From positions 23,893 to 87,892 of IMG/VR virus record IMGVR_UViG_3300045303_000221: DNA of 64,000 nucleotides. One strand, written 5' to 3'. Under the pieces are notes generated by a model. That model did no database searches. It was not told the origin of the DNA and worked only from the letters and a program-made list of their open reading frames with translations. A program made the translations under genes and the position numbers. Each line of letters begins with the position of its first letter. The first letter of the stretch is position 1. Shown piece after piece: positions 2,565 to 44,400 of this stretch. Source of the stretch: a virus.

Positions 2565-2618
2565 CTAGCTCACGACGTGTTATACTTGGGGTGCGGGGAG
2601 AGTCCCCGCAGAGAGGAG
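2565..2618 (+). promoter_or_regulatory. conserved phage promoter + leader hairpin + RBS (copy 1)
   Basis: CTAGCTCACGACGTGT-TATACT-TGGGG-TGCGGGGA-GAG-TCCCCGCA-GAGAGGAG; nearly identical to 6848-6899. Confidence 0.85.
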
Positions 2619-2627
2619 ACGCAGGAC

Positions 2628-3104
2628 ATGACCCGACGGTATGTGAGTTGCGCGGAGACGGCGAAGCTGGTTCGCGCCGCACTCAAGGCGAAGTTCCCGG
2701 GGGTGAAGTTCTCGGTCCGATCCCACACCTACTCGGGTGGGGCGTCGATCGACGTGACGTGGCTGGATGGGCCGACCGGCAAGGACGTGGCGCTGGTGAC
2801 GGAGCTTTACCGCGGCTCGACCTTCGACGGGATGATCGATCTGAGGACGAGCCACACGACGCTGCTCGCCAGCCCGGACGGGTCGGTCGAGGAGGTTCAC
2901 TTCGCAGCGGACTACGTGTTCACGCACCGCAACCTGTCGCCGGAGTTCCAGGCGACCCTGGGCGCGATGTACGAGGCGGAGTACGGCGCGGTGTACGACC
3001 GCGAGGCGTACGACAACAGCGCCGACCACTACTACCGCAAGCTCGTGAGCGAGACGTGGGGGCCGCTGCGGAAGGTCGCGAAGATGGAAGGGGCGACGAG
3101 GTGA
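2628..3104 (+). CDS. LPD29-like protein
   Basis: AKLVRAALKAKFPGVKFSVRS..YSGGASIDVTWLDGPT...FDGMID matches my recollection of LPD29. Confidence 0.75.
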   Translation: MTRRYVSCAETAKLVRAALKAKFPGVKFSVRSHTYSGGASIDVTWLDGPTGKDVALVTELYRGSTFDGMIDLRTSHTTLLASPDGSVEEVHFAADYVFTHRNLSPEFQATLGAMYEAEYGAVYDREAYDNSADHYYRKLVSETWGPLRKVAKMEGATR

Positions 3105-4394: not shown

Positions 4395-4876
4395 CGACGG
4401 ACGTGAAGCCGACGTTCACCGGGCCGGGCGGGAGCGCGTGGGAAGTGGCCGTGCCGGACGCGCCGGGCCACGGGCAGGTGTGCCAGTGGCTGCTGTTCGC
4501 GCCCACCGCGCACCCGTTCTGGAACTTCCACGTCATCACGGTCGCGCACCTGCTGCCGATCGAGGGCGTGAAGGACGCGCACGTCCAGTTCCCGGGCGCG
4601 TCGCACGAAATGCTCGTGCTGGCGCTCGATCCGGAGACGGAGGACGCGATCGACCCGGCTGACGCCGCGACGCAGAAGCAGTGGATGCAGCCGCCGGACG
4701 CCGTGGTGCAGTTCATCGTCGCGAACGACGAGCAGGCGTGCGCCGTGGCGCGGTTCTCGGCGCAGGCCGTGACGCAGGGACTGATCGCCCCGGACTCGGA
4801 CTTCAGGCAAGCGTGGGAGGTGGGCGTGGCGGCGACGGCTGAGCACGTCCGGCTCGGCGAGCACCCGGAGGGCTGA
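4391..4876 (+). CDS. hypothetical phage protein
   Basis: GGAGG RBS, GTG start, coupled to terminase by TGATG. Confidence 0.65.
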   Translation: MTTDVKPTFTGPGGSAWEVAVPDAPGHGQVCQWLLFAPTAHPFWNFHVITVAHLLPIEGVKDAHVQFPGASHEMLVLALDPETEDAIDPADAATQKQWMQPPDAVVQFIVANDEQACAVARFSAQAVTQGLIAPDSDFRQAWEVGVAATAEHVRLGEHPEG

Positions 4877-6648
4877 TGCCGTCGCACGCGATCACCACGC
4901 TGCGCGGGAAGATGGCCGGGGCGGCGACGCGGCGGCTCAACGAGGCGCGCGCGGTGCAGGCGCGGAAGGTCAGCGAGACGGGCTTCTACGAGTGGGCGCT
5001 GCGCATCCCGGAGCCGAAGACGGGGACGCTCGACTTCGACAAGTTCCCGTTCCAGAAAGAGATGTACCAGGAGTCCGGCGAGCGCGAGATCGTGGTGAAG
5101 AAGGCCACCCAGATCGGCGTGTCGGCGTACCTGATCCGGTGGTCGCTGTTCTACGCCGACACGCGCGGCTGGTCGGTGCTCTACATCTTCCCGACGGTGA
5201 AGCAGTTGTACGACCTGTCGGACGCGCGGGTGCAGCCGCTGATCGACAACACGGAGTACCTGCGCGGCCGGGTGCCGCGCACGCGGGTGCAGAACAAGGG
5301 CCTGAAGGGCGTCGGCCTCGGGCTGGTCTACTTCCGCGGCTCGGAGCGCAAGCGGGCGCTCGACTCGGTGGACGCGGACGCCATCGCCTTCGATGAGTAC
5401 GACACGCTGACGCAGGACAACCTGCCGGACGCCGAGCGGCGCGTGTCCGGCTCCGAGCACGGCCTGCTGCGCCGCGTCGGCGTGCCGTCGGTGCCGGACT
5501 TCGGGGTCAGCGCGGGGTACGAGCGCAGCGACCAGCGGCGGTGGCTGACGAAGTGCGAGGGGTGCGGCGAGTGGCAGCCGATCGACTTCTGGAAGAACGT
5601 GGACCAGGAGCGGATGATGGTCGTCTGTTTCGTGTGCCGGAAGCCGCTGGAGGTGGAGCGCGGCGAGTGGGTGGCGCAGTACCCGGAGCGCGACGTGCGC
5701 GGCTACCACGCGCCGCGGCTGATCGTGCCGCGCATCGCTCGGAACGAGAACGGTGCTCTGGAGGGCATCGTCAAGGAGAGCAAGAAGCGGAAGCCGTACG
5801 AGGTCACCGTCTTCCACAACAAGGACCTGGCCGAGGACTACGCACCGGCGGAGGGGCGGCTGACGCTGGCGGCCATCCAGGCGGCGCAGACGGCGGGCGG
5901 CGGCTACGCGCAGTTGACGGGGTACACCGGCGACCGGCTGGTGACGATGGGCGTGGACGTGGCGTCCACCCGGAACCTGAACGTGCGGATCTCTGAGCAC
6001 CTGCGCGACGGCGTGAAGCGGGCGCTCTACATCGGGGAGGCCAAGAGCTTCGATGAGGTGGGCGAGTTGATCCGCCGGTTCCGGGTGAACATGACGGCGA
6101 TCGACCACCTGCCCGAGCACCGGCTGGCGATGGGCCTGGCGGAGCAGTACGCGGGCCTCGTCTACCTGGTGAACTACTCGGCTCCGAAGGTGGGGCCGGT
6201 GCTGACCGTGAATGAGGGGCTGCGGACGGCGAGCGTGCGGCGGACGGAGGCGATCGACGCGACGTTCCAGCAGATGCGCGAGCAGCGCAACCACCTGCCG
6301 ATCGACCTGCCGGAGGGCTACGCGCAGCAGATGACGACGCTCGTGCGGCACGTGACGGTGGACGAGTCGGACAAGGTGGTCGTGAGCTACAAGGCGACCG
6401 GCCCGCACGACTATGCGCAGGCCGAGGTGTACGACCTGATCGCGGGCGAGTTGTGGACGTTCCGGCAGGCCGTCGATGCCGAGATGCAGTCGGAGCTTCG
6501 GCCGCTCGATGACATGCTGGAGTTTGAGCGCAGCGCGCTGTCGGACGAGAGCGTCGGCTACTCGCCGGGGCCGAGCCTGGACGAGGGGTTCGCGGAGGAT
6601 GAACTGCCGGACTACGACGATCCCGAGGTGGCTGGCGGCGACTGGTGA
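4876..6648 (+). CDS. terL: terminase large subunit (GpA-like)
   Basis: Walker A-like VVKKATQIGVS, LYIFPT, Walker B IAFDEYD, two CxxC pairs, nuclease MGVDV, C-terminal HDYAQAE. Confidence 0.9.
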   Translation: MPSHAITTLRGKMAGAATRRLNEARAVQARKVSETGFYEWALRIPEPKTGTLDFDKFPFQKEMYQESGEREIVVKKATQIGVSAYLIRWSLFYADTRGWSVLYIFPTVKQLYDLSDARVQPLIDNTEYLRGRVPRTRVQNKGLKGVGLGLVYFRGSERKRALDSVDADAIAFDEYDTLTQDNLPDAERRVSGSEHGLLRRVGVPSVPDFGVSAGYERSDQRRWLTKCEGCGEWQPIDFWKNVDQERMMVVCFVCRKPLEVERGEWVAQYPERDVRGYHAPRLIVPRIARNENGALEGIVKESKKRKPYEVTVFHNKDLAEDYAPAEGRLTLAAIQAAQTAGGGYAQLTGYTGDRLVTMGVDVASTRNLNVRISEHLRDGVKRALYIGEAKSFDEVGELIRRFRVNMTAIDHLPEHRLAMGLAEQYAGLVYLVNYSAPKVGPVLTVNEGLRTASVRRTEAIDATFQQMREQRNHLPIDLPEGYAQQMTTLVRHVTVDESDKVVVSYKATGPHDYAQAEVYDLIAGELWTFRQAVDAEMQSELRPLDDMLEFERSALSDESVGYSPGPSLDEGFAEDELPDYDDPEVAGGDW

Positions 6649-6851
6649 GCGATCAGTACGGGAAGCGGTGGCGCGGCGGGGTGGACTGGCACAAGTGGGG
6701 CGTCGCGCTGATCGTGATGGTCGGCGAGTCGCGCGACGTGCCGGGGGACACGACGGTCATGTACGTGGAGCCGTGGCAGATCCACGTGCAGGTCGGGCCG
6801 TGGTGGGGCGACGTGCGTGGCCGGTTCCCGGACACGCCTGGGCCTGCCTAG
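6645..6851 (+). CDS. hypothetical protein
   Basis: GTGA overlap with terL. Confidence 0.5.
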   Translation: MSDQYGKRWRGGVDWHKWGVALIVMVGESRDVPGDTTVMYVEPWQIHVQVGPWWGDVRGRFPDTPGPA

Positions 6852-6899
6852 CTCACGACGTGCTATACTTGGGGTGCGGGGAGGGACCCCGCAGAGAGG
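6848..6899 (+). promoter_or_regulatory. conserved phage promoter + leader hairpin + RBS (copy 2)
   Basis: CTAGCTCACGACGTGC-TATACT-TGGGGTGCGGGGAGGGACCCCGCAGAGAGG. Confidence 0.85.
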
Positions 6900-6909
6900 C
6901 AGGTGCGAC

Positions 6910-7185
6910 ATGGGCACGACGAGGACCCCGACCTTCCGCGTGGAGGCGACCTCGGTACGGCTGCGCGACGGCAAGCGGTTCCACGAGGTGCTGCTCGGCT
7001 GGCGCGGCACGGCGACGGACGCGAAGCTCGCGGAGTGGGTCGAGACGTTCGACACGGCGACCGCGCCGGGCGGCGTGAACGCCCACCTCGGGCAGCACCA
7101 GACGACGCGCGCGAAGGTCGTCCGGCAGACCACCGGCGAGACGGTCGCGACGTTCGTCCGCCCGATGTTTGAGGCGGTGGCGTGA
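6910..7185 (+). CDS. hypothetical protein
   Basis: ATG after conserved leader. Confidence 0.65.
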   Translation: MGTTRTPTFRVEATSVRLRDGKRFHEVLLGWRGTATDAKLAEWVETFDTATAPGGVNAHLGQHQTTRAKVVRQTTGETVATFVRPMFEAVA

Positions 7186-7445
7186 TGGCGGTTGACCACG
7201 CGACCTGGCCGTATCGCTACCCGAACACGTACGAGATGCACATGCGCAACGTCGTGACCGGCGAGGTGCGCCACGTGCTGGCGAAGGCGTTCGACTCCAC
7301 GACCGCGCTGGCGTACGTGCTGCGCAACGAGCGGACGGGCCAGTGGGTGCTGGACGGCTTCGTCTACGACGAGCAGACGGGCGGCGGAGGCCGTGCCGGG
7401 ACGCTCCACCCGCGGCAGGCCGGGACGCCGGGGTACGTGCCGTGA
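7182..7445 (+). CDS. hypothetical protein
   Basis: Translationally coupled. Confidence 0.55.
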   Translation: MMAVDHATWPYRYPNTYEMHMRNVVTGEVRHVLAKAFDSTTALAYVLRNERTGQWVLDGFVYDEQTGGGGRAGTLHPRQAGTPGYVP

Positions 7446-7678
7446 CGGCGCTGCGCCGGGCGTTCGCCTGGGACCTGATCGGCTTCGACGGCGCGTGCCG
7501 GACGCTCCCGAACGGCCGGGCGGTGTGGGAGGCCGTGGACTACGACGACTCCCGCACGCCCGCCCGCCGGAAGGTGAAACTGTCGCGGCTCGTGGTGGAC
7601 GAGTCCGGGCTGCGGCAGGTGACGCGCTACGTCGATCCGGACCAGCCGATGGAAGTGCTGGCGGAGCCGTCGGCGTGA
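7442..7678 (+). CDS. hypothetical protein
   Basis: GTGA coupling. Confidence 0.55.
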   Translation: MTALRRAFAWDLIGFDGACRTLPNGRAVWEAVDYDDSRTPARRKVKLSRLVVDESGLRQVTRYVDPDQPMEVLAEPSA

Positions 7679-8154
7679 TCATCCTGGCGTTCATCGTGCT
7701 GTGCGCGTTCGCCCCGCTGATGTGGGAGATGTTCAAGACCGCGCTGGTCGTGGCCGGGTGGGCGCTGGTCGCGGCCTGGGCCGCGCTGGTCGCGGTGTGG
7801 TGGATCGCCGTTGTGATCGTGACGGCGGTCGGCGAGGCGTGGCTGTGGTGGCGCGCTCGGCGGCGGCGGCGGGCGGAGTTGCTGGCGGCGGGCAGGTTTG
7901 TGCTGGAGGGCAAGCCGGTGGTGCGGCCGGTGGCGCTCGCGAACCCGGAGTGGTGGGACCTGATTCCGGACGATGCGTTCGTGCCGCCGCTCGGGTGGCG
8001 GGTGCGCAAGAAGCTGCGGCTGCCTGCGCGTCCGCTGCCGCAGGTGCCGACGCCGGGCCGGGCTGCGCTGCCTCCTGCCACGGTGCTGCCGCCGCCGCCC
8101 GCGCGGAAGAAGAAGCCGTCCGCCGAGGGCGCTACGCTTCGATCCTCAACCTAG
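7675..8154 (+). CDS. membrane protein
   Basis: Long hydrophobic N-terminus followed by an Arg run. Confidence 0.6.
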   Translation: MIILAFIVLCAFAPLMWEMFKTALVVAGWALVAAWAALVAVWWIAVVIVTAVGEAWLWWRARRRRRAELLAAGRFVLEGKPVVRPVALANPEWWDLIPDDAFVPPLGWRVRKKLRLPARPLPQVPTPGRAALPPATVLPPPPARKKKPSAEGATLRSST

Positions 8155-16856: not shown

Positions 16857-17426
16857 ATGCGCAAGCTCATCATGTTCGCGAGCGCCCTGGCGGCTCTCGT
16901 GGTTCCCTCGATCGCGTCGGCCGACGTGCCGCGCTATCAGACGCAGACGGCGAAGTTCACGATGATCCAGCCCGCGAACGAGTACCACCAGTTCGCCAAC
17001 GTCTGGACGCACGACTTCACCGTCACGACCAACCCGTGCAACGACACGTTCTCGGGCACCGGCGTGCAGACCGGCCACGACGGCAACGGCGACTACACCG
17101 CCACGTGGGACATCACCGGCAAGTTCGGCGCTGGCAACACGGTCACCTTCACGGCGACCCGCGCCGACACGCTCGTGCTCGGCCTGACCAACGCGCCGAT
17201 GGACAACGTGCTCGGCGGCACGAACGGCACCGTCACGATCGCCTCGACCGAGTTCGCCGGGCTTCCGCTCGTCACGCCCGACGTGATCGAGGAGAAGCTG
17301 TCGGCTCCGGTGTTCTCCAACCTGAGCAACTACCGCAACCACGGCGCGTACGTCTCGTCCGTCGGCGGCGGCAGCGATGCGGCTCACTCCTGCATCGGGA
17401 TGCCGATCGTCTCGGCTCGCTCGTAG
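16857..17426 (+). CDS. secreted beta-rich protein
   Basis: Signal peptide ending ASA; Thr/Gly/Asn-rich; NHGAYVS. Confidence 0.75.
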   Translation: MRKLIMFASALAALVVPSIASADVPRYQTQTAKFTMIQPANEYHQFANVWTHDFTVTTNPCNDTFSGTGVQTGHDGNGDYTATWDITGKFGAGNTVTFTATRADTLVLGLTNAPMDNVLGGTNGTVTIASTEFAGLPLVTPDVIEEKLSAPVFSNLSNYRNHGAYVSSVGGGSDAAHSCIGMPIVSARS

Positions 17427-17442
17427 CTCGACGCTGCGTGCT

Positions 17443-17600
17443 GCGCGGGCGACCAGCCTCCCCTGGTCGCCCGCGTGGTGCGGAGCGCCTGCTCCCGTGG
17501 AACGCCTCTCCCGCCGGGTCCCATACCGGCGGGAGAGTTCGTTCGTCCCCAGAACTCGCACGAAACTGGCCGAGCGCGCAGTATCGTGCGAGTTACGGGG
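17443..17600. other. cluster of three long hairpins
   Basis: Stems 17443-17476, 17500-17544, 17547-17600. Confidence 0.6.
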
Positions 17601-17606
17601 GTGCAG

Positions 17607-17792
17607 ATGGACTGCCCGAGGTGCGGCACGCCAATGGTGCGCGAGAAGGCTCACGACACCTGCCACTGGTGCGGCTACATCGAGCCGTGCTGCTCGGGCG
17701 AGTGCTCGCCGCCGGACTACCCCCCAACCGGCGTGCGCGCGGACCGTTCCCAACGATTCCAGGCCGCGCGTCCCTACTACCCGACAGGTTAG
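17607..17792 (+). CDS. small zinc-ribbon protein
   Basis: CPRCG...CHWCGY..PCC. Confidence 0.55.
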   Translation: MDCPRCGTPMVREKAHDTCHWCGYIEPCCSGECSPPDYPPTGVRADRSQRFQAARPYYPTG

Positions 17793-18205
17793 GCCGCTGC
17801 GGCGGCGACGCCAAGGCTGGCGACCCCGAGGATGCTCATCAGCGTGCCGCGCGGGATCGAGCGGTTGCCGTGCATCGGCACGACCACCTTCCGGCCGCCG
17901 CCGGGCGGCTCAAAGACGGCGTGCGATCCCTTCTGGCCGATGCGCTTGAACCCGGCCTTCACGAGCATCTTGTAGACCTGCTTGGGAGTCATCGCCGGGA
18001 GCCGCGAGCCGACGAAGCTGCGCGTCTCGATCGGGTGCCCTTGGCCGTCCATCGGGATGAACTCGCCGATGCGGTTGCGGCGGTGCAGAGCCTCGTCCCA
18101 CCGGACGGACGGAGGGCGGGCCTCCATGATCCTCGCGGCGCGCAGGGCGACCGCGAGGGACACGCCGCGCGACTCGTGGAGAGCCACCCGATCCCAGAAG
18201 TCCAT
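17789..18205 (-). CDS. hicA: HicA-family RNase domain with N-terminal HPR-type tag
   Basis: MTPKQVYKMLVKAGF..IGQKGSHAVF...VVVPMHGNRSIPRGTLMSIL; leader IMEA...WDEALHRRNRIGEF; leaderless TACGAT-N6-ATG. Confidence 0.85.
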   Translation of the reverse strand: MDFWDRVALHESRGVSLAVALRAARIMEARPPSVRWDEALHRRNRIGEFIPMDGQGHPIETRSFVGSRLPAMTPKQVYKMLVKAGFKRIGQKGSHAVFEPPGGGRKVVVPMHGNRSIPRGTLMSILGVASLGVAAAAA

Positions 18206-18248
18206 GCGTGGATCGTAGTACGACCGCTGCGACCTGTAGCATTCAGGC

Positions 18249-19844
18249 ATGGGATGGGAGGACTCCGAGGCGCGGCGGTGTGCCGTGGAGCGCCTTCTCG
18301 CGGAGGCGGACTTCAACCCGGGCCTGCACCCGCACGACCGGCGCGGCCGGTTCATGCGCACCTGGCACCGCCCGAAGATGCCCGACTACGCGCAGGGCGG
18401 GCACCCGTTCGCGTCGCGCTACAAGCCGCACATCGACGTGCTGCGCGCGCTGGACGACGCGACGATCAAGCAGCTTGCGACGGAGCACAACGCGGCGTAC
18501 CCCGAGGCGGCGGCGGAGATCGCGCAGGGCCACGGGATCGTGAAGGTGTCGATCAAGCCGGACAAGTACGGCAAGACGGCGGAGGTCGTGTTCGCGCCGC
18601 AGGTTGTGCTGGCGGACGGCGGCACGGCGTCGGCGGCCGAGCCGATGATCTTCCCGATCGCGCACGGCGGCGTGAACCGTCCGTTCCTGAAGCAGGTGAA
18701 GGGCCACTTCCGAGGGATGCAGGTGCCGGTGCACGTGGAGTCGGTGACCGGCTACTCGCGCGACACCGAGGTGATCCCTCCGACGATCCGCTCGCAGAGC
18801 CTGAGCCGTCAGGTCGCCACCGGGCAGGCCGACTCGCCGCAGCCGGTGATCCCGGGCCTCGACCCGCAGTCGCGCGCGGACGCGGTGCTGAAGCGCCTGG
18901 AGCCGCTGCGGACGATGCGGACGTACGGCGAGGGCTACGACCGGACGGTGGCGACGCACGCGAACGACGCGCAGCGGATGGCGCTGGCCGGGCGGGTGGA
19001 CGAGGCGGAGCACTGGGCGACGCACGCCGAGAAGGCGGCGGCGCACGTGCGGGAGCGAGCGGCGGAGCGTGCAGCGCGAGGCACGGAGGCGTGGTCGAGC
19101 ACGGCCTGGCAGCGCCAGCCGAGGATACGGGAGGGCGTCATGGAACTGGACCGGGACGAGGCGGTGGCCTACTACGGCCGCGCGATGGAGCGGCTGGCCG
19201 AGCACGGCTGGCGGCCTCAGCAGGCGCACACGATCGCGCTGGAGGCGGGACGCACGCGGTACGGCAGCGAGTTCAGCACGCTCGTCCTGAGCGAGGGCCT
19301 GTTCACGCGGCTCGGGCACGCCGTCGGCGGCGGCGCTACGCACTACGACAAGTCGAAGCACCCGCACGGCCGGGGCGGCAGGTTCGCGGAGACGCCGGAC
19401 GCGCCGAAGCCGGTGCGCCACGAGGCCCCGGAGCCGGAGGCGGCGCTGCCGTCCGAGCACGGCCTGGCGAACATGACGCCGAGGGCGAAGTCGCTGGTGA
19501 ACGCGGTCGCGCTCCACTACAAGGCGTTCGGCGGCTCCGACTCGGAGATGCGGTTCCGGTTTCAGTCCGGCAACCTGCATCCGCAGGATCTGCGGCGGAT
19601 GCGGGAGCAGGCGATGCGCGCTCGCGATGAGCGCAGCAAGTCGGGCGACGCGGCGGGTGAGAAGGCGGCGCGCGACACGCTCAGCGCGATCAGAGTGGTG
19701 GAGCGCGAGCTTGGTCTGAGCGCCCAGACAGCGCAGCAGGAGAAGCCTGTCTCGTCCGAGGAACTGCTACGGCGGGTGCGCAACCGGCCGGTGGAGCGGT
19801 CGATCGTTGACCCGTACGGGCACTACTCGTATCAGACGGGCTAG
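18249..19844 (+). CDS. putative head cargo protein with two HPR tags
   Basis: LAEADFNPGLHPHDRRGRF and YDKSKHPHGRGGRF; leaderless TAGCAT-N7-ATG. Confidence 0.75.
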   Translation: MGWEDSEARRCAVERLLAEADFNPGLHPHDRRGRFMRTWHRPKMPDYAQGGHPFASRYKPHIDVLRALDDATIKQLATEHNAAYPEAAAEIAQGHGIVKVSIKPDKYGKTAEVVFAPQVVLADGGTASAAEPMIFPIAHGGVNRPFLKQVKGHFRGMQVPVHVESVTGYSRDTEVIPPTIRSQSLSRQVATGQADSPQPVIPGLDPQSRADAVLKRLEPLRTMRTYGEGYDRTVATHANDAQRMALAGRVDEAEHWATHAEKAAAHVRERAAERAARGTEAWSSTAWQRQPRIREGVMELDRDEAVAYYGRAMERLAEHGWRPQQAHTIALEAGRTRYGSEFSTLVLSEGLFTRLGHAVGGGATHYDKSKHPHGRGGRFAETPDAPKPVRHEAPEPEAALPSEHGLANMTPRAKSLVNAVALHYKAFGGSDSEMRFRFQSGNLHPQDLRRMREQAMRARDERSKSGDAAGEKAARDTLSAIRVVERELGLSAQTAQQEKPVSSEELLRRVRNRPVERSIVDPYGHYSYQTG

Positions 19845-19848
19845 ACGC

Positions 19849-19906
19849 TAAGCACGCATCGTGCGCTATACTCCATGTGCGGGGCGAGTGCGCCGCAGAG
19901 AGGAGG
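19849..19906 (+). promoter_or_regulatory. conserved promoter + hairpin + RBS
   Basis: AGCACGCATCGTGCGC-TATACT...TGCGG..CCGCA-GAGAGGAGG. Confidence 0.8.
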
Positions 19907-19914
19907 AGCGAATC

Positions 19915-20484
19915 GTGTCTATTTTCGAGCAGCCGATCAACGTCGATACCCGAGTCGGGCGGATGCTGGACGCGCTTGCTGTGTCTGACAACCGGCGCGG
20001 GATGGTGCTCGTCACCGTCACCGTGAAGGCTGCGGACGGAGGGCGGCGCTACCACGAGGCGTTCGCGATCAAGCAGTGGGCTGGCCGGGACGGGACCCGC
20101 AACCTGAGCGTGAGCATCCACAACTCGGGCGACTGGGCGTCGGGGATCAAGCCGATCACCGTCATGCACCTGAACCTGCTCACCCGCGAGATGTTCCCGG
20201 GGCGGGACGAGCGCGGCGCTGCGCCGCTGATCCGGTACGCCGCGAACGCCGCGCTGCGGTTCGCGTGGACGGGGACGCTGCCGACTCCGGCGAACGGTTC
20301 GGTGGAGGCGGTCGAGGCGGCGAAGTGCGGCCGGTGCGGGGCGACCCTGGTCGATCCCGAGTCGATCGCGCGGGGCCTCGGGCCGGAGTGCGCGTCGAAG
20401 CCGACAGGCTCGCGGACGATCCGCTCCCGCGAGCGGCAGATGCAACTGGCCGAGCCGGAGCCGGACCTGGCTCCGACCGGCTGA
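19915..20484 (+). CDS. DUF6011-like Zn-finger protein
   Basis: CGRCGATLVDPESIARGLGPEC. Confidence 0.8.
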   Translation: MSIFEQPINVDTRVGRMLDALAVSDNRRGMVLVTVTVKAADGGRRYHEAFAIKQWAGRDGTRNLSVSIHNSGDWASGIKPITVMHLNLLTREMFPGRDERGAAPLIRYAANAALRFAWTGTLPTPANGSVEAVEAAKCGRCGATLVDPESIARGLGPECASKPTGSRTIRSRERQMQLAEPEPDLAPTG

Positions 20485-26199: not shown

Positions 26200-26424
26200 G
26201 TGGCGGACACGCCGATCAAGGTGCGCGAGCCTCGGCTCGGAAGGCGGTCGCCACGGATCGGCGACTTCTACACGAACGGCCGGGAGTTGTACGAGGTGCT
26301 GATCGTGGCGGACGGCCGGGCGGCGATGGAGAACTGCCGGACGGAGTTCACCACCGAGTACGACCTGGAGACGGTGCGCCGGATGCGGCTCGTGCGCGTG
26401 GGAGGTACTGATGGGCTGGCTTGA
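26200..26424 (+). CDS. hypothetical protein, first gene of the portal operon
   Basis: Leaderless TATGCT-N7-GTG. Confidence 0.55.
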   Translation: MADTPIKVREPRLGRRSPRIGDFYTNGRELYEVLIVADGRAAMENCRTEFTTEYDLETVRRMRLVRVGGTDGLA

Positions 26425-28303
26425 GGGCGTGTCGAAGCGGCTACAGGAGGCGGCTGGGGTGTCGCTGGTCGCGCCGGAGGAACGGGCGGTGGAGGAGCGC
26501 CTGTTGGAGGCGACGACGCGCGAGTTGAGCGCCACCCGGAAGGACCTCGACCTGCTCGGCTGGACGGCGCTGGACTACGTGGCCGGGATGCCGCAGGACA
26601 TGCCGGTGCAGAACCGGCGCGAGCTTGTCGCGCACGCCCGGCGGGTGTGGCGGCGCGACCCGATGGCGGGCGCGGCCGTTGACCTGCTGAACGACTTCAC
26701 GTTCTCGCGCGGCGTCCCGCTGCCGCGCGCTCGGGACGAGGAAGTGCAGATCGTGATCGATGAGGCGTGGAACGACGTGGACAACAAGGCGGTGCTGACG
26801 ACGTACGCGGCGCAGCTAGCGCTCGGCACCGACCTGACGCTCCAGTCCAACGTGTTCCTGGCCGTGTTCGATGACGGCGACGACGGCAAGGTGAAGCTGA
26901 CGATCGTGCCGCACGACTCGGTGATCGACGTGGTGCGCGACCCGGACAACCCGATGCGGATCCTCTACTACGTCGTGCAGGTGAACGACACGGAGTGGGA
27001 CTTCGACGCGGACGCGCCGAAGGTGAAGGCGGCGGCGGGCGCGGCGGCGGGCACCGGCGGCACGTACAAGGCGGGGCAAGCGCCGGTCGGCCGGGTGCTG
27101 TATTTCGAGCACTGGCTGAACTGCCGGATGCTGCGAGAGGAAGGGATCGACTTCCCCGAGCCGCCAGCGGAGAAGCAGGCGGCGGGCAAGATGTACCACA
27201 TCGCCACGAATCGCGGCTCGGAGATGGCGTTCGGCGTGCCGCGGATGGAGCGGACGCTGCGCTGGCTGACGGGCTACAACGAGATCGTCGCGGCGCGCGT
27301 GGACATGGCGAAGGCGGCGGCGGCCTTCATCATGAAGCGCAAGATCACCGGCACGAAGGGGCAGGTCGAGCGGCTGGCGTCGCAGGCCATCTCGCGCCGG
27401 TCGGAGCTTGGCGCGGCGAGCGCGGCGGGCACCGGCTCGCAGATTCCTCCGGCGACCGGTTCGATCCTGAACGAGAACGAGTCGGTGCAGCACGAGCCGT
27501 TGAAGCTGGACTCCGGGTCGAGCGGGGCGATGCAGGACGCGCAGATGATCCGCGCGCAGGTGTCGGCCGCGACGCGCTGGCCGCAGCACTACCTGGGCGA
27601 CGTGAACGCTGCGAGCCTGGCCGGATCGACGGCGATCGAGCTTCCCGTGCTGAAGCTCGTGGAGGCCAACCAGGAACTGTTTGAGAACCTGTTCCGGGCG
27701 TTCCTCGACCGCGTGATCGAGCGGGCGGTGGAGGTCGGGAGGCTCGACAAGAACGCGCCCGCGCCGGAGGGTGAGGCGCTGGAGGCGGCGGACAACGACG
27801 ACGAGGAATCGACCGAGCGCGACCTGAGCTACGAGTTCAAGATGCCGTCCGCGATGCGGCGGATGATGACCGACCTGGTGACTTCGGTCGCGACGACGGC
27901 GCAGACGTTCGACCCGAACAACTCCAACCTGGAACTGAGCCGGACGCTGCTCACGATCGTGCTGGGCGAGGCGTTTGAGCTACAGGACCCGGCGGAGGCG
28001 GTCGATCGCATCTTCCCCGAGGGCTATGTCGATCCGGCGGTGCAGGCGGCGCAGGCGCAGGCGGAGATCCCCGGCACCGAGGGGTTCGATCAGGCCAGCG
28101 AGGAAGGCGCTCCGACCGGCGGCGACGGGCAGGACCAGGCGACCAACCCGTACGGCGCTCCGATGAAGTCGCCGCCGCCGGAGCAGCGGGCGCGGATGGC
28201 GGAGGCCGCCGACGGCATCGAGGAGGCGCTGTTGGACGACCCGGCGTTCCGCGAGGCGTGGATCGCGGCGGTCGGCATCGGACGCAATGGCGACGGACAC
28301 TGA
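26411..28303 (+). CDS. portal protein
   Basis: 630 aa; DPMAGAAVDLLNDFTFSRG, RDPDNP, RGSEMAFGVP, PQHYLGD...ASLA.STAIELP; directly before MuF. Confidence 0.8.
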   Translation: MGWLEGVSKRLQEAAGVSLVAPEERAVEERLLEATTRELSATRKDLDLLGWTALDYVAGMPQDMPVQNRRELVAHARRVWRRDPMAGAAVDLLNDFTFSRGVPLPRARDEEVQIVIDEAWNDVDNKAVLTTYAAQLALGTDLTLQSNVFLAVFDDGDDGKVKLTIVPHDSVIDVVRDPDNPMRILYYVVQVNDTEWDFDADAPKVKAAAGAAAGTGGTYKAGQAPVGRVLYFEHWLNCRMLREEGIDFPEPPAEKQAAGKMYHIATNRGSEMAFGVPRMERTLRWLTGYNEIVAARVDMAKAAAAFIMKRKITGTKGQVERLASQAISRRSELGAASAAGTGSQIPPATGSILNENESVQHEPLKLDSGSSGAMQDAQMIRAQVSAATRWPQHYLGDVNAASLAGSTAIELPVLKLVEANQELFENLFRAFLDRVIERAVEVGRLDKNAPAPEGEALEAADNDDEESTERDLSYEFKMPSAMRRMMTDLVTSVATTAQTFDPNNSNLELSRTLLTIVLGEAFELQDPAEAVDRIFPEGYVDPAVQAAQAQAEIPGTEGFDQASEEGAPTGGDGQDQATNPYGAPMKSPPPEQRARMAEAADGIEEALLDDPAFREAWIAAVGIGRNGDGH

Positions 28304-38426: not shown

Positions 38427-41400
38427 GTGGAGCCGCACGACGATCTGTCTGAGGCCGCTGGCGGAACGCCGCCACCGAAGCGTCGCGGTGGGCAGGGCGC
38501 GAACCAGGAGTTTGAGGGCGCGCACCCGCGATCGGCGAAGGGCCGGGTGGGCGGCGGCGAGTTCGCGAAGAAGCCCGGGCAGGGCGGCGCGGCGAAGCCG
38601 AAGATGCAGGCGGTGTCGGTCGCGTCGGCGCTGAAGGCGGCCGGGGTGAAGTCGATCGCCGAGTTCCAGAAGACGCGCGGGCTGCCGGTGACGGGCAGGC
38701 TCGACTCGCGGACGATGGTGGCGCTGCGCAACGCCTACGTCGCGCACCTCGTGGACTTGCAGTCCGGCGGTGGGACGGCGGCCGGGACGAACGCGGCGGC
38801 GAAGGCCGGGGTGACGCTCGGGCTGCACGACTACGCGAAGCGCGGGATGGGCACGAAGGCAGACCCGGACTCGCGCGTGAGCCGGGTGCAGCAGACCCTG
38901 GAGCGGCTGGGCTACGACGTGCCGATCGACGGCGTGTATAGCTCCGAGCTTGAGACGGCCGTGAAGCAGTTCCAGGCCGACCACGGACTGCCCGCCACGG
39001 GCGTCGTGAGCGTGCAGACGCTGCGGCAGATGGACAAGCTCCACTCGCAGCGCGACGCCGGGAAGGAGCCGGGCGGCGGCCTGTCGGCGGACACGCCGGG
39101 CACGAAGCACCGGGTCGGCACGGACGAGGTGAAGTCGCTCGCGAACCGGGCACGCGCCGGGCGGATCGCGCGCACCGGCCGGGTGGCGGCGACGGTGAAG
39201 ACGACCACCCCGAAGGCGAAGGCGAAGCCGACCGGCACGAAGCCGCGCAAGCCGCCTGCGACGACGGCCGTGAAGATCACCCAGGCAGCGGTCGATGAGC
39301 CGGACGAGGCGCGCTTCGACGCGCTCGTGATCGACGGCGAGGAGGTCGAGCCGACGGACGTGACGACGCTCCCCTGGTGGGACGAGGACGAGACGTTCGC
39401 GCAGGAGGCGGCGATCGACTGGCGCGAGGTGCTGCACCCCCGGAACCGGCTCGGGAAGTTCCGGCGCGTGTTCGGCGACCCGCGCCCACAGACGCACACG
39501 CAGCGGCTGGTGGCGGAGCCGCCGGTGCAGACGCGGCGCACGGCCGGGAAGCTCGGGGCGCGTCGCACACGGCGCGAGACGCCGGTGCCGGACCAGTGGG
39601 GCCAGAAGCTGATCGAGCACGCCGAGTGGAGCGACAAGGACAACAAGTGGCTCCAGGAGGGCGGGGTGCTGGCGACGGTCACGCACCTGGCGACGGCGCA
39701 CCGCTGGCCGAGCATCGCGCCGTTCCAGGGGTTCGACGCGAAGTCGCTGCGCAACTCGGAGGGCGAGCTTCGGATCAGGCCGCCGCAGGAGGTGAACGGG
39801 CAGCGCATTTTCGAGCAGTGGTGGATCACGGCCGCGATCAGCGCGGCGAAGAAGGGCGTCACCGAGATGGTGATCGCGCACGAGGTGGGGCACATGCTGG
39901 ACGCATCGCTGATGCGCCCCGAGGACGGCCAGCCCGATCCGCGCAACAAGAGGATGGACTACCACTTCCACGGCAGCGAGGCAGCGGCGAACATGTCGAT
40001 CGAGACGATCGAGCGGCAGGGCTTCGCGATGTCGGCGGAGCAGCACGCGAGGTGGCGCGAGTTCCTGAAGATCGCCGTCACGCCGTCGGTGCTGGGGCAG
40101 ACGAAGTACGCGGCGAAGTACCACCGGTCGCCCGCCGAGTTGTGGGCGCGGGCGTATGCGCAGTGGGCGGCGTCCACGCAGGGGCCGCCGCTGGGGATCG
40201 AGCGGGCCGCGATTCCGGGCATGACGTGGCCTGCGGACGAGTGGGAGCCGGTCGGCCGGGCGGTGGAGTCGGTGCTTGGCAGCTACGGGCTGCTGCACAC
40301 GGACGGCGCGTTCAAGTGGGAGGTGCAGCCGGGCGGGATCGAGCCGCAGATCATGCCGGACGCGGCGCAGAAGACGATGAACGCTGTGCACAAGTTCATC
40401 GGCGACCAGCGGATGCACGGCGCGGCGCAGGCGCTGCAGGGCTTCGACTTCAAGTACGTCGATACGGTGGGCGGCGAGCACGAGTACGAGCGCGAGGTGG
40501 GTGGCGGTCTGCTCACCGGGTTCGTCAAGCCGAACGACCCGTCGATCCGGTGGGAGTTTGAGGCGGACGTGCAGGCGACGCCGCCGTATCAGCGGAGTCG
40601 GCGGGCACCGAAGCCGATGCCGGAGTACGTGCGGCAGGAGGGCCTGAACGCGGAGGCGGAGATGGAGTCGCGCGGGGTGCCGCCGATGGGCGTCCTGCTC
40701 GACCGCGGCTTCCGCTCCGAGGACTCGCCGTCGAAGGCGCACGCGGTGTACGCGAAGACGTTCCCCGAGGGGAAGCTGCGCGCCCGGTTCAAGCACGGCG
40801 AGCACAAGGTCGAGTGGAAGTGGGAGGGCGACCTGCCGGACATCACGTCGGAGGTGAGCGCGCCGCTGCCGGTGCCGCCGAAGCCGGAGTGGGTCCGACC
40901 GGATGATCCGGAGGGCGAGTCCTCGGACGAGTTCCTGGTGCGGATGGCCCGCGAGCGCGAGCGGACGATGACGTGGGAGCAGGAGGTGAAGCGGGGCCTC
41001 TCTGTTGGCCGGTGGACGGAGGCGGAGGCGAAGGAGGCTGGCTACCACACCCAGAGCCGCGGGGAGGGATGGGAGCCGCTGCCGGACGGGCCGCTGTTCC
41101 ACGTGACGACGGCCGCGAGCGCGGTGCGGGCTGGTGGGCTGAAGACACGGTACGAGCTTGCGCAGGGTTCGGGCGCAGGGCTGGGCGGCGGCGCGGAGGA
41201 CACGATCTCGTTCACCACGGACGAGACGATCGCGCGCGCCATCGCGCTGGGCCTGCGGGAGATGCGGATGGTCGCGCGCGGGGAGGTGTCGGCCGCCGAC
41301 CTGTTGCGGCACGCGGAGAACGGCACCGCGGCTGATAGGCCGTTCGCGACCGACCTGATCCGGTACTACGACTACGCGAACCGGGCGTGGTCGCCGGGAG

Positions 41401-44400
41401 ACGAGTTGCCGTCGGAGTTGCGGCTGTTGCTGGACGGCAAGCGACGGGTCGGTCACACGCACATGCCATCGACGCGAGAGGAGGCGGCGGCTGAGGCGGG
41501 GATCGCGCCGGAGCTTCTGACGCACTCAGATCAGTCGATGCCGTTCGGACGGGGGGCGCGGAACGACTGGGTGGGGCCGATGACGGACGCGCAGTTGCGC
41601 GAGAAGACGGTGGACTTTTACCGGGCGTTCCAGACGTTCCGCGAAGGCGCGGGCGGGCCGTTCAACCCGCTGTTCTTCTCGTCCGACACGGAGGCGCTGG
41701 CGAACGTGCATCCGTCGGAGATCCGCATCCTGCGGTTCCGGCGGAAGGCGAACGGGCACGGCTACCGGACGGCGGGGATGGAGGAGATCCGCACCGGCAG
41801 CGGCGAGGCGGTGCAGTTGGAGGACGTGCTGCGCGAGGACGCCTTCGACCTGTCGGAGGCGACGCACGAGTGGACGACGCTGCGGACGGACAAGGTGCGG
41901 GTCGGCGCTACCGAGGTGATCGGCCCGGACGTGACGACGCTCTCGTGGTGGCGCGAGGAAGCTGTGCAGGAGGCGTCCTGGCGCTCGGTGCTGCACCCTC
42001 GCGACCGGCGCGGCCGGTGGCGACACACGCTCGGGAAGCCGAAGGCGCGGAGCACGATCACGATCGACCCGGGCACGTTTATGCCGCCGTCGGGGCCGCT
42101 GGCGAATGGTCGGCCGCGCACGAGGGCGAAGACGCCGGTGCTGGACGAGACGCAGCGGATGATCCGCGACGCGCCGTTCCTCGATACCGACGTGGGCGAC
42201 GAGGTGCCGACGGAGTTCAACGTGGTGATGGCGCAGGCCGTCGTCGCGGAGGCACACCGGTGGCCGGAGTTGCCGCCGCTGACGTTCGTGCTGGGCGACC
42301 TGGAGCCGGGCGTGAAGGGAGAGTTGAGCATCACGCCGCCGGTGCCGCCGTTCCAGGAGGAAGCGTGGGAGTTGGCGCTGGACGAGAAGCTGATGGGCGT
42401 GGAGGGCGCGACGACGTTCGCGCACGAGATGGGCCACGCGGTGGACGCTGCGATGGCGCGCGACGTGGGGTATGTCGAGGGCAACAACGTGCGCGGCGCG
42501 GTCGGGAACTTCGGCTACTTCGCGTCGGGCATGGCGGCGGCCGACAACCCGTACGGCGAGGTGCTGCTCGGGCCGGAACGGTTCGCGGCGTGGCGGCACT
42601 TCCTGAAGATGGCCGTCACGCAGTCGATCGTGGACGAGATGTCGTCGCCGCCGGACTACTACCGCTCCCCGCACGAGTTGTGGGCGCGCGCCTACGCGCA
42701 GTGGGTGGCGACGCAGGACGAGGCGCTGATGGGCGAGATGCACGACGTGCACGAGCACGGCTGGCCGCAGGACGAGTGGGAACCGGTCGGACGGGCCGTG
42801 GAGCGGGTGCTGGGCGCGCACGGGCTGCTCTACGAGGGGGACGAGGCGTGGGTGGCGGAGGTCGGCCCGGAGCCTGAGAGGCGGCCTCTACGGCAGCCTC
42901 CGCGGTCGCAGATCGAGACGCCGCTCCCGCCCGTCATCCGCCAGAAGGCGGTCGCGGTGATGCACGACCTGACGCACATCGACCACAACCAGACGGGCGT
43001 GACGACGGACGACGTGATGCGGACGCACGGCTTCGCGGAGCCGGAGGGAGAGGCGCTGGCCGATGCGTTCCGGGAGGGCCTGGTCGGCGTCGGCTACAAG
43101 CTGTACGTGAGGGAGTTCCCGGTGGGCCGGGCGTGGTTCCGGGTGCGGACGGGCGAGCAGCCGCCGACGGAGCCGAACTTCTCGTGGATCGGCGAGGCGC
43201 TGCCCGACCCGCTGACGTTCGTGGTCGAGGCCCCGGATGACGAGGACGACCTGGAGTGGTTCCCGCTGGCGACGCCGGACGAGGTGATCGTGGACGGCGA
43301 GGTGATCGAGGGGCCGGACGTGACGACGTTGCCGTGGTGGGACGACGACGACGTGGTGGAAGCGGTGGACTGGCGGCCCGGCCAGCATCCTCGCGATCGG
43401 CGCGGTAGGTGGCGCGACGTGCTGGAAATGCCGAAGTCGAACGTGCTCGACAGGATCTCGGTGAAGTCAAGGGCGGAGCCGGACAAGCCGCTGACGACGA
43501 AGCTCGCGGGCCACGAGGTTCCGGTCGTGGTCGGCGAGATCGACATGTCGTACGCCACGACGACGCGCGTGGTTGCGGCGTTCGCGGCGGTCAAGGATCA
43601 TCGGTTCCCGGTGGGGTTCCTGACGATCGACCGGGACAAGCACCGGGTCGAGTTGATCTACGTGGAGACGGACAACCGGCGGCAGGGGATTGCGACGGCG
43701 CTGTACCGGGCGGGCCTGGCGCTGTACCCAGACCTGATCTTCGACGCCGACCGGACGGATGAGGGGGAGGCGTTCACGACGGCGACGGGCGGGAAGCGGG
43801 AGCGGCGCAGGAAGTTCGCGACGGCGGAGGCGCGGCGTATCGGTAGCCGGTTCCTGGGGGCGATGTACGGGGCGACGGCGGAGGACATCAAGCCGATCGA
43901 GCCGCCGCAGTCGGAGGGGCCGATCAGGGTCGCCTCGCGCTCGGGCTACCCGCCGGGCGGCGAGTGGCGGCGGGCGGTCGGCCTGGGGGAGGACGCCTAC
44001 CTGGTGGGTGGCGCTCCCCGGAACCGGATCTTCGGGGAGCCGGTGAAGGACGAGGACTTCATGGCCCTGCAGACGCCGGAGGCGATCAAGGCGGCGGCGC
44101 TGGCGGCTGGGCACACGGTGGAAGACCTGATGGTGCGCGACCGGCTGGTGGGCGTGCGCGTCACCGGGTCGAAGCTGCCGTCGGGCGGGATCGAGATTGC
44201 GCCGCCGAGGGTGGAGCGCTCGACCGGCGCGGGCCGCCACGACTTTGAGATCGTGCCGCACCCGGGGATCGGGTCGGAGACGCCGGAGGTGCTGCTCGCG
44301 GCGGACGCTGCGCGGCGCGACTTCACGTTCAACGCGCTGTACGAGGACGCGGCCGGGAACATCGTGGACCCGACCGGCACGGGCCTCGCGGATGCGCAGG

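Follow-up and report, generated by a model that had tools for sequence, protein, structure and literature searches.

An orphan HicA gene of a probably virulent phage shares a header tag with modules of polyvalent, portal-linked proteins

We analysed a 64-kb window of phage DNA, the last 64 kb of the 87.9-kb IMG/VR virus record IMGVR_UViG_3300045303_000221 (CheckV completeness 74%), around a small minus-strand gene that encodes a HicA-type RNase domain behind an N-terminal extension. The window has a G+C content of 70% and nearly all of its genes lie on the plus strand. We counted ~3 genuine minus-strand genes in the 64 kb, the HicA gene among them, in keeping with an initial annotation that had called such genes few. 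The gene lies between the large terminase and portal genes, an interval that also holds an SNF2 helicase gene and many small genes, and a short gap separates it from a divergent neighbour with no known domain. The extension consists of a predicted two-helix leader and a short motif, the header tag, that recurs in other proteins of the window. Four related phage records were compared, namely the window's own record and three relatives, one of which (G002) is complete at 125 kb with terminal repeats. Coordinates are collected in Table 1.

The minus-strand open frame spans 17789..18361, and the initial annotation had taken 17789-18249 as the gene. From the ATG at 18205 downwards, the G+C content at the three codon positions (GC1/2/3 = 0.71/0.51/0.93) matched that of the phage's other genes. 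The stretch 18206-18250 looked intergenic (GC1/2/3 = 0.47/0.53/0.73), and beyond 18250 the frame is the antisense of the gene at 18249. Because the coding signature is present only from ATG 18205, we place the gene at 17789-18205; the longer gene was not borne out, and the 43-bp gap (18206-18248) proposed with it was. The equivalent M-x-F-W is the start of all aligned homologues.

The encoded protein has a single effector domain by Pfam. HicA_toxin (PF07927) matched residues 75-126 with 60.2 bits against a cut-off of 27 (E = 2e-16), phrog_353 ('toxin') matched the protein (E = 3e-13), and PDB entry 1WHZ was similar to the domain in sequence. The AlphaFold2 (AF2) model of the domain showed an alpha-beta-beta-beta-alpha fold like that of a double-stranded RNA-binding domain, with helices at residues 74-83 and 119-137 and strands at 87-92, 95-99 and 107-110 (predicted local distance difference test, pLDDT, 79-90 over residues 71-130). 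A Foldseek search matched it to the B. pseudomallei HicA 6G26_E (template modelling score 0.88 by target, root mean square deviation 1.5 A) and also to 1WHZ, 5YRZ, 6HPB and 4P78. G93-S94-H95 was invariant in a 15-sequence alignment. Judged by its sequence, the HicA endoribonuclease appears catalytically intact.

In the AF2 model, the extension (residues 1-71) begins with a two-helix hairpin (residues 3-28, pLDDT ~85), and a low-confidence stretch (residues 29-70) that holds the tag lies between this hairpin and HicA. A word-indexed search returned 14 homologues of 105-180 aa at 55-73% identity. Query coverage was at least 91% in 11 of the 14 and 79-83% in the other three, whose called N-termini are shorter. 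Searching with a profile of the extension by itself added ~10 clusters, which gives a family of ~25 protein clusters on viral and metagenomic contigs. The leader consensus is M-x-F-W-x-x-V-A-L-H-E-x-R-G-x-x-R-P-V-A-L-R-A-A-R-I-x-E-A-R, and the tag consensus in the family is R-W-D-E-x-L-H-P-R-x-R-x-G-E-F. E28, W36, H41, G47 and F49 were invariant in the family alignment, and the residue after E28 was A, G or R. Each of the 28 positions that are invariant in the family, G-S-H among them, is kept in the window copy. The extension was 51-60% identical to that of the three related phages; between the window and G002, identity was 47% for the terminase and 49% for the portal protein. Codon-position substitution counts were uninformative, since GC3 was saturated. 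Both the HicA domain with its GSH motif and the ~70-aa extension with I-M-E-A and tag had been read from the sequence in the initial annotation, and both hold.

The range of the two-helix leader was narrow, comprising the HicA family and two further proteins, P0030 and P0022. P0030 (118 aa, from a 1764-nt JGI metagenome contig) has the same leader, an HLR variant of the tag and an Ala/Thr-rich, non-HicA C-terminus; it represents either another cargo or a remnant left by a frameshift. Neither the extension nor the divergent neighbour had an informative match in the ESM Atlas. We did not find the tagged HicA family in 185,579 species-representative prokaryote genomes, and the search for related loci returned three viral loci, one full-length metagenome locus and none in genomes. 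By tblastn, no tagged HicA was present in cultured-phage records; the matches were Streptococcus prophage HicAs, which aligned with the domain alone. Neither the 28-aa tag peptide nor the tag-plus-zincin module described below had a match in those records, and we could link no published virion proteome to a phage with the tag.

We also considered a start at the internal Met72 (MTPKQ), which aligns with the N-terminus of canonical 70-80-aa HicAs. HicA modules embedded in proteins of 750-2000 aa retain this Met as well, although translation cannot begin there, so its conservation is no argument for internal initiation. Sequence inspection revealed no Shine-Dalgarno sequence or -10 box before Met72. 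The coding signature covers the extension, which is about as conserved as the terminase and portal proteins. Translation from the internal MTPKQ only is therefore unlikely.

The general form of the header is [aromatic]-x-[D/E]-x-L-H-P-R-x-R-x-G-x-[F/W]. We searched the six-frame translation of the window with the loose pattern H-[P/R]-[R/H]-x2-5-G-[R/K/E/Q]-[F/W/Y] and obtained 15 matches, all in frames with a coding signature (14 on the plus strand and the one in HicA). Of the 14 further tags, 13 scored as coding over the whole open reading frame (ORF), and none was in a non-coding frame. Seven of them are in a 3915-aa protein, one in a zeta-toxin-like kinase, two in the divergent neighbour and four in smaller proteins encoded between the portal and capsid genes. 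Altogether, 12 of the 15 tags are located between the portal and capsid genes. We built a hidden Markov model (HMM) of the tag from 13 window tags of other genes, without any HicA sequence. This model recognised 15 of 18 HicA-family proteins, each at the homologous place (E = 3e-8 to 3e-3). The HicA tag of the window itself scored poorly (E = 1.7, not significant alone) because it reads HRR instead of HPR, and the link of HicA to the tag thus rests on the homologues. Arg in place of Pro42 occurs only in the window copy among the 15 aligned homologues. HRR and HLR variants occur naturally in other proteins, HRR in P0175.

Most tags of the window and of G002 have a hydrophobic-x-E-[A/S] element 8-9 residues before the tag His. 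In HicA, I-M-E-A lies 13 residues before it. Such an element is missing from some tags elsewhere (P0174, P0175 and P0177), so it is separable from the core tag. We found no published description of the tag in the searchable literature.

The 3915-aa protein, a phage-type polyvalent protein as defined by Iyer et al. 2017 (PMC5512222), also holds a PG_binding_1 domain at its N-terminus, an LPD1 match and a CCA-adding/poly(A) polymerase module. Its seven tags head modules of ~310-850 aa. Its four zincin motifs (A-H-E-x-G-H-x-L-D) each lie ~150 residues after a tag, and the repetition of a tag + zincin unit suggests internal duplication. We rejected Pfam LPD1 as the identity of the tag, since LPD1 matches another stretch of the protein; the tag-holding pieces matched no Pfam family even at E up to 10. 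Just upstream of four junctions in the giant protein, at 39300-39440, 41900-42000, 43280-43390 and 48050-48150, a second conserved stretch (…D-V-T-T-L-P/S-W-W…) was seen. The zeta-toxin-like kinase is a second TA-type (toxin-antitoxin) toxin domain recruited without an antitoxin, and has a homologue in G002 at ~22-24 kb.

An exhaustive HMMER search ranked long multi-module proteins directly after the solo tagged HicA forms. P0020 (1198 aa) consists of an N-domain, tag, CCA-adding + HD modules, tag, HicA, tag and a C-terminal domain, and P0019 (990 aa) of an N-domain, tag, HicA, tag, HExxH domain, tag and a second HExxH domain. P0022 (754 aa) has the leader, a tag, ART, HicA and an HExxH (zincin) domain. 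P0021 and P0023 (1971 aa) follow the same pattern, with tag + HicA as one module among several. The embedded HicA modules of P0019-P0021 have the tag and no leader. The HicA domain is thus common to tagged solo proteins and to genuine polyvalent phage proteins (P0019, P0020, P0022 and P0023).

Tag-headed modules are also linked to the portal and portal-adjacent proteins. The N-domain of P0020 was 39% identical (BLASTP, E = 4e-36) to residues 103-306 of the protein encoded directly after the portal gene in the window. In P0174, a portal protein (Phage_portal, E = 9e-49) is continued by two modules, each with a tag at its head. The tag precedes the start of the Pfam enzyme domain by 15-30 residues in P0173, P0176 and P0020, and in the portal-linked polyvalent proteins of this phage group each enzyme or toxin module begins 10-35 residues after a header. 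G002 has seven tags, located in its HicA, a 613-aa PG-binding protein and two ~1050-aa proteins just downstream of the portal. Counted across the terminal repeat, ~13-23 kb separate its HicA gene from the portal block. In a tree of HicA domains (161 rows, 64 columns), the 17 solo tagged proteins formed the only supported clade (SH-aLRT 97).

We assessed whether the HicA gene has a HicB partner. The HicB models PF15919 and PF05534 had no match in the 87.9-kb record, and PF15919 had none in the three relatives, the complete G002 included. At five loci (the window, L002, L003, L004 and L016) no neighbour held a HicB domain; the neighbours differ and are not homologous, and include a GMC/FAD-SLDH oxidoreductase pair, an amidase and small ORFs without an assigned function. 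The canonical HicA matches at L020 and L027 carry a HicB-like ORF just upstream. No gene downstream of HicA was found to be conserved across the loci. The tagged HicA gene is an orphan without HicB, and the absence of an adjacent HicB stated in the initial annotation extends to the whole record. In L002, a related 127-kb phage, genes for an FAD-SLDH small subunit and a 567-aa GMC-type FAD oxidoreductase directly precede HicA (5899-7991); the pair is unusual as auxiliary metabolic genes for a phage.

The divergent neighbour (18249-19844) had been described as a tagged gene, and it has two tags. It has no homologue in G002, and HicA is co-directional with its neighbours in L002-L004, where the minus-strand orientation seen in the window does not occur. 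The back-to-back arrangement is therefore local. A small Cys-rich, zinc-ribbon-like ORF (17605-17792, plus strand, 61 aa, no Pfam match) converges on HicA from the other side. Its stop at 17790-17792 overlaps the HicA stop, with no terminator between them.

The initial annotation had also placed back-to-back, leaderless -10 boxes in the gap. TACGAT and TAGCAT are present there as pattern matches, and the gap contains no Shine-Dalgarno sequence; a scan for two-hexamer sigma-70 promoters and terminators found nothing in 17300-18600. TANNNT-N6-[A/G]TG was not enriched in the window (12 observed vs 11 expected). Nine of the 12 matches were at the start of an ORF with a coding signature: 4021, 13740, 15497, 18205(-), 18249, 32726(-), 38427, 53845 and 54778. 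These starts include HicA, its neighbour, the giant 3915-aa protein and a 492-aa tagged protein, and the zeta-like gene has the N7 form, so the TANNNT-N6/7-start arrangement is common to HicA and four other tagged genes. These pattern matches suggest that leaderless transcripts may be common in this phage.

Table 1. Features of the tagged HicA gene and of other genes in the window
Feature	Position	Strand	Details
Tagged HicA coding sequence, 138 aa (P0002)	17789..18205	-	ATG at 18205; stop TAA 17789-17791; GC-frame signature, Pfam
Leader, residues 1-28	18122..18205	-	Predicted helical hairpin (helices 3-12 and 17-28); AF2 pLDDT 84-87
I26-M27-E28-A29	18119..18130	-	Hydrophobic-x-Glu-Ala at the end of helix 2; candidate cut site
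Header tag W36-F49 (WDEALHRRNRIGEF)	18059..18100	-	Degenerate, Pro42 -> Arg; predicted disordered, pLDDT 51-57
Low-confidence linker, residues 50-71	17993..18058	-	AF2 pLDDT 51-57; length variable among homologues
HicA RNase domain, residues 72-138	17792..17992	-	Ala-rich C-terminal tail; Pfam, 1WHZ, Foldseek
Catalytic-motif His95	17921-17923	-	G93-S94-H95 motif
43-bp divergent gap	18206..18248	.	TACGAT 18212-18217 (-) and TAGCAT 18237-18242 (+), each 6 nt from ATG
Divergent neighbour, 531 aa	18249..19844	+	No known domain; two tags (His at nt 18327 and 19359)
Large terminase	4876-6648		~20 kb upstream of the portal gene
Portal protein	26411..28303	+	phrog_10963, E = 3e-27
Portal-adjacent protein, 1054 aa	28287..31451	+	Directly after the portal gene; N-domain residues 103-306
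Tagged zeta-toxin-like kinase, 727 aa	34579..36762	+	Tag His at nt 34975; Pfam Zeta_toxin/AAA_33, E = 2e-20
Polyvalent protein, 3915 aa	38427..50174	+	Seven tags; four A-H-E-x-G-H zincin motifs

The window encodes a large terminase, an SNF2 helicase, a portal protein, a cement protein and a Phage_capsid_4-type capsid protein. The latter shares ~28% identity with the capsid protein of 933W/phi24B-type Stx phages, and both the capsid and the cement protein belong to the phi24B/933W families. We found no tyrosine or serine recombinase (integrase) in the four related phage records, and the phage that carries the tagged HicA is probably virulent. The lack of an integrase, together with the absence of the family from prokaryote genomes, fits virulent phages and a toxin that needs no antitoxin for its maintenance. 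In G002 the terminase (89.6 kb), portal (102.7 kb) and capsid (53 kb) genes are likewise far apart. The window also encodes a solo LPD29 domain protein (E = 4e-24; 2577-3104, plus strand) and a DUF6011 protein (19861-20484, plus strand), which are further polyvalent-associated or phage-typical small domains in single genes.

We compared the HicA protein with known systems. T4 internal proteins and Alt carry an N-terminal capsid-targeting sequence that the gp21 prohead protease removes at L/I-x-E. The present header resembles that system in being a short N-terminal peptide common to unrelated small cargo proteins, with a hydrophobic-x-Glu nearby. It differs in that no recognisable prohead protease, of the gp21 type or other, turned up in the four records, in that the tag is also placed internally, between modules, and in having no sequence similarity to the T4 peptide. 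The type II HicAB TA systems (E. coli 6HPB, B. pseudomallei 6G26 and Y. pestis HicA3B3 4P78) share the HicA fold, Pfam family and G-S-H motif. Their toxin is the HicA domain alone (~60-80 aa), whereas the window protein has 138 aa with a 71-residue N-terminal extension, belongs to a family confined to viral contigs, and has neither HicB nor a conserved operon partner. The phage-type polyvalent proteins (Iyer et al. 2017, PMC5512222) are alike in occurring in phages with portal-terminase packaging and in that the same HicA module is found inside multi-domain proteins with ART, nucleotidyltransferase and zincin modules. Iyer et al. note solo versions of polyvalent domains, and HicA has 0 occurrences in their paper (PMC5512222). 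The HicA protein differs from the polyvalent proteins in being single-domain and encoded outside the head block, and its header is none of their LPD domains.

HicA domains have been described as delivered toxins in bacterial polymorphic toxin systems (S8-PTS, RHS toxin; PMC9424270), a precedent for trafficked proteins that have acquired a TA-type HicA domain as their toxic end. Among temperate phages, MuF polymorphic toxins are head-associated proteins with variable toxin ends and a downstream immunity gene (Jamet et al. 2017, PMC5576092). In both of these systems the toxins are C-terminal domains, of secreted bacterial toxins or of MuF proteins, whereas the present HicA stands solo behind its own leader and tag, with no immunity gene found. 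Unlike the MuF toxins, it has no MuF domain, and its phage is apparently virulent. Phage phi24B has the same capsid and cement families and a large polyvalent protein, gp47; it is a distant phage by its capsid, and gp47 has no HicA. The 2811-aa gp47, a precedent for packaging, was detected in virions by mass spectrometry and proposed as an ejection protein, and the phi24B major capsid protein is not cleaved (bioRxiv 10.64898/2026.04.10.717836). Phage polyvalent proteins and solo domains are predicted to be packaged and injected (Iyer et al. 2017, PMC5512222).

These data suggest that the tagged HicA is probably a phage weapon and not a TA remnant. More specifically, we regard it as about an even call that the protein is a solo, header-tagged effector of the phage's polyvalent head-cargo protein set. 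We propose that the phage took over a HicA toxin without HicB, and that the toxin would have been exchanged between stand-alone genes and multi-module proteins. The tagged HicA would be made from its own leaderless-type promoter. Leader and header would recruit it to the destination of the other tagged modules, putatively the capsid interior, via portal-linked proteins. HicA would then be delivered with the DNA, and a few copies could cut host or defence RNAs early in infection. The initial annotation had read the gene as a TA toxin captured as an injected effector; that it is no ordinary TA toxin and carries the header of polyvalent modules agrees with our results, and its injection is what we infer from them.

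Several observations weigh against this proposal. The HicA gene lies outside the head block, 8 kb upstream of the portal gene and on the other strand. Its tag is degenerate and may work poorly or not at all. The near-confinement of the leader to the HicA family could suggest a HicA-specific role, such as inhibition in cis. In the tree, the embedded modules were not resolved as sisters of the solo forms, and the approximately unbiased test neither rejected nor showed a single clade (P = 0.30). Pfam Phage_Mu_F was not detected in the portal-adjacent protein or in the record. Proteases of the S78, ClpP and S49 families (PF04586, PF00574 and PF01343) had no match in the four records, with positive controls that worked; S77 (PF03420) also had no match, but its control gave none either. 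The gene and its domains, their conservation, the modular use of the tag and the orphan status rest on the comparisons above; capsid loading, delivery, cleavage and the RNA targets are what we infer.

The only protease candidates were the zincin motifs of the giant and portal-adjacent proteins, and such metallopeptidases have been proposed to process polyvalent proteins (Iyer et al., PMC5512222). Cleavage at the candidate site, after the Glu of I-M-E-A, is possible but unsupported. Any such processing would more likely be due to the zincin modules of the giant protein than to a head-maturation protease. Since the cut would fall before the tag, the tag would stay on the mature protein, unlike the T4 capsid-targeting sequence. 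The initial suggestion that a propeptide keeps HicA inactive until head maturation was not supported, given the protease searches, a capsid of the type that is not processed in phi24B, and the expected retention of the tag after any cut. A role of the leader as a HicA inhibitor is likewise unsupported.

The chief rival explanation is an RNase for host takeover or anti-defence that is never packaged, being made and acting in the infected cell. The header would then dock a common chaperone, inhibitor or regulator, or serve as a domain-boundary or folding element. The position of the gene outside the head block, on the opposite strand and with its own promoter-like box, fits this explanation, as does a genomic context that differs in every relative, as with morons or accessory genes; in an apparently virulent phage, a toxin left unneutralised during infection would need no antitoxin. 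It accounts less well for the concentration of 12 of the 15 tags between the portal and capsid genes, and for the same tag following the portal domain in P0174 and heading modules in homologues of the portal-adjacent protein. Phage transcripts, too, would be cut by an RNase that stayed active throughout infection. We consider a non-packaged RNase rather unlikely, and a tagged effector carried in the head the better account.

It appears improbable that HicA is a TA or abortive-infection-type toxin whose activity is checked in cis by the two-helix leader, or by a partner that escaped recognition, be it an RNA or a small protein (the product of the convergent zinc-ribbon-like ORF, for instance). 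HicA is normally toxic without HicB, a HicB could be too divergent for PF15919 and PF05534 or lie outside a record that is 74% complete, and the leader is both well predicted and nearly specific to the HicA family. That leader, however, is also found at the head of P0030, a protein without HicA, and of P0022, where ~350 residues separate it from the HicA module, whereas the embedded modules of P0019-P0021 do without it. No neighbour was conserved across the five loci; the complete relative has no HicB by PF15919, and the family was not found in the cellular genomes searched. It is very improbable that the window copy is a decaying, non-functional remnant. The lost header proline, which no other of the 15 sequences has lost, the poor HMM score of its tag and the inversion of the gene relative to L002-L004 would be explained by decay. 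Against these stand an open frame with a full coding signature, the retention of every invariant family position including G-S-H, the promoter-like box, and the natural occurrence of HRR and HLR tags in other proteins.

We advance a broader claim only tentatively: leader and H-P-R header may form a portable address label, sufficient to load any small protein into the capsid of these phages and deliver it with the DNA. The solo HicA, with one 65-residue toxin and one label, would be its minimal natural example. If the header does address proteins to the head, the 138-aa protein is the simplest natural construct of this kind, with one leader + tag and a small toxin whose RNase activity or growth arrest is easy to read out, and HicA would join the effectors carried by phage polyvalent-protein systems. 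It would show the reuse of a TA toxin by a virulent phage without an antitoxin, as a first-strike RNase. The tag motif is seemingly widespread, with no description found in the searchable literature, and the label would correspond to the T4 capsid-targeting sequence but be undescribed, widespread and retained on the mature cargo. A portable capsid-loading tag, if confirmed as such, would be useful for packaging chosen proteins into phage particles.

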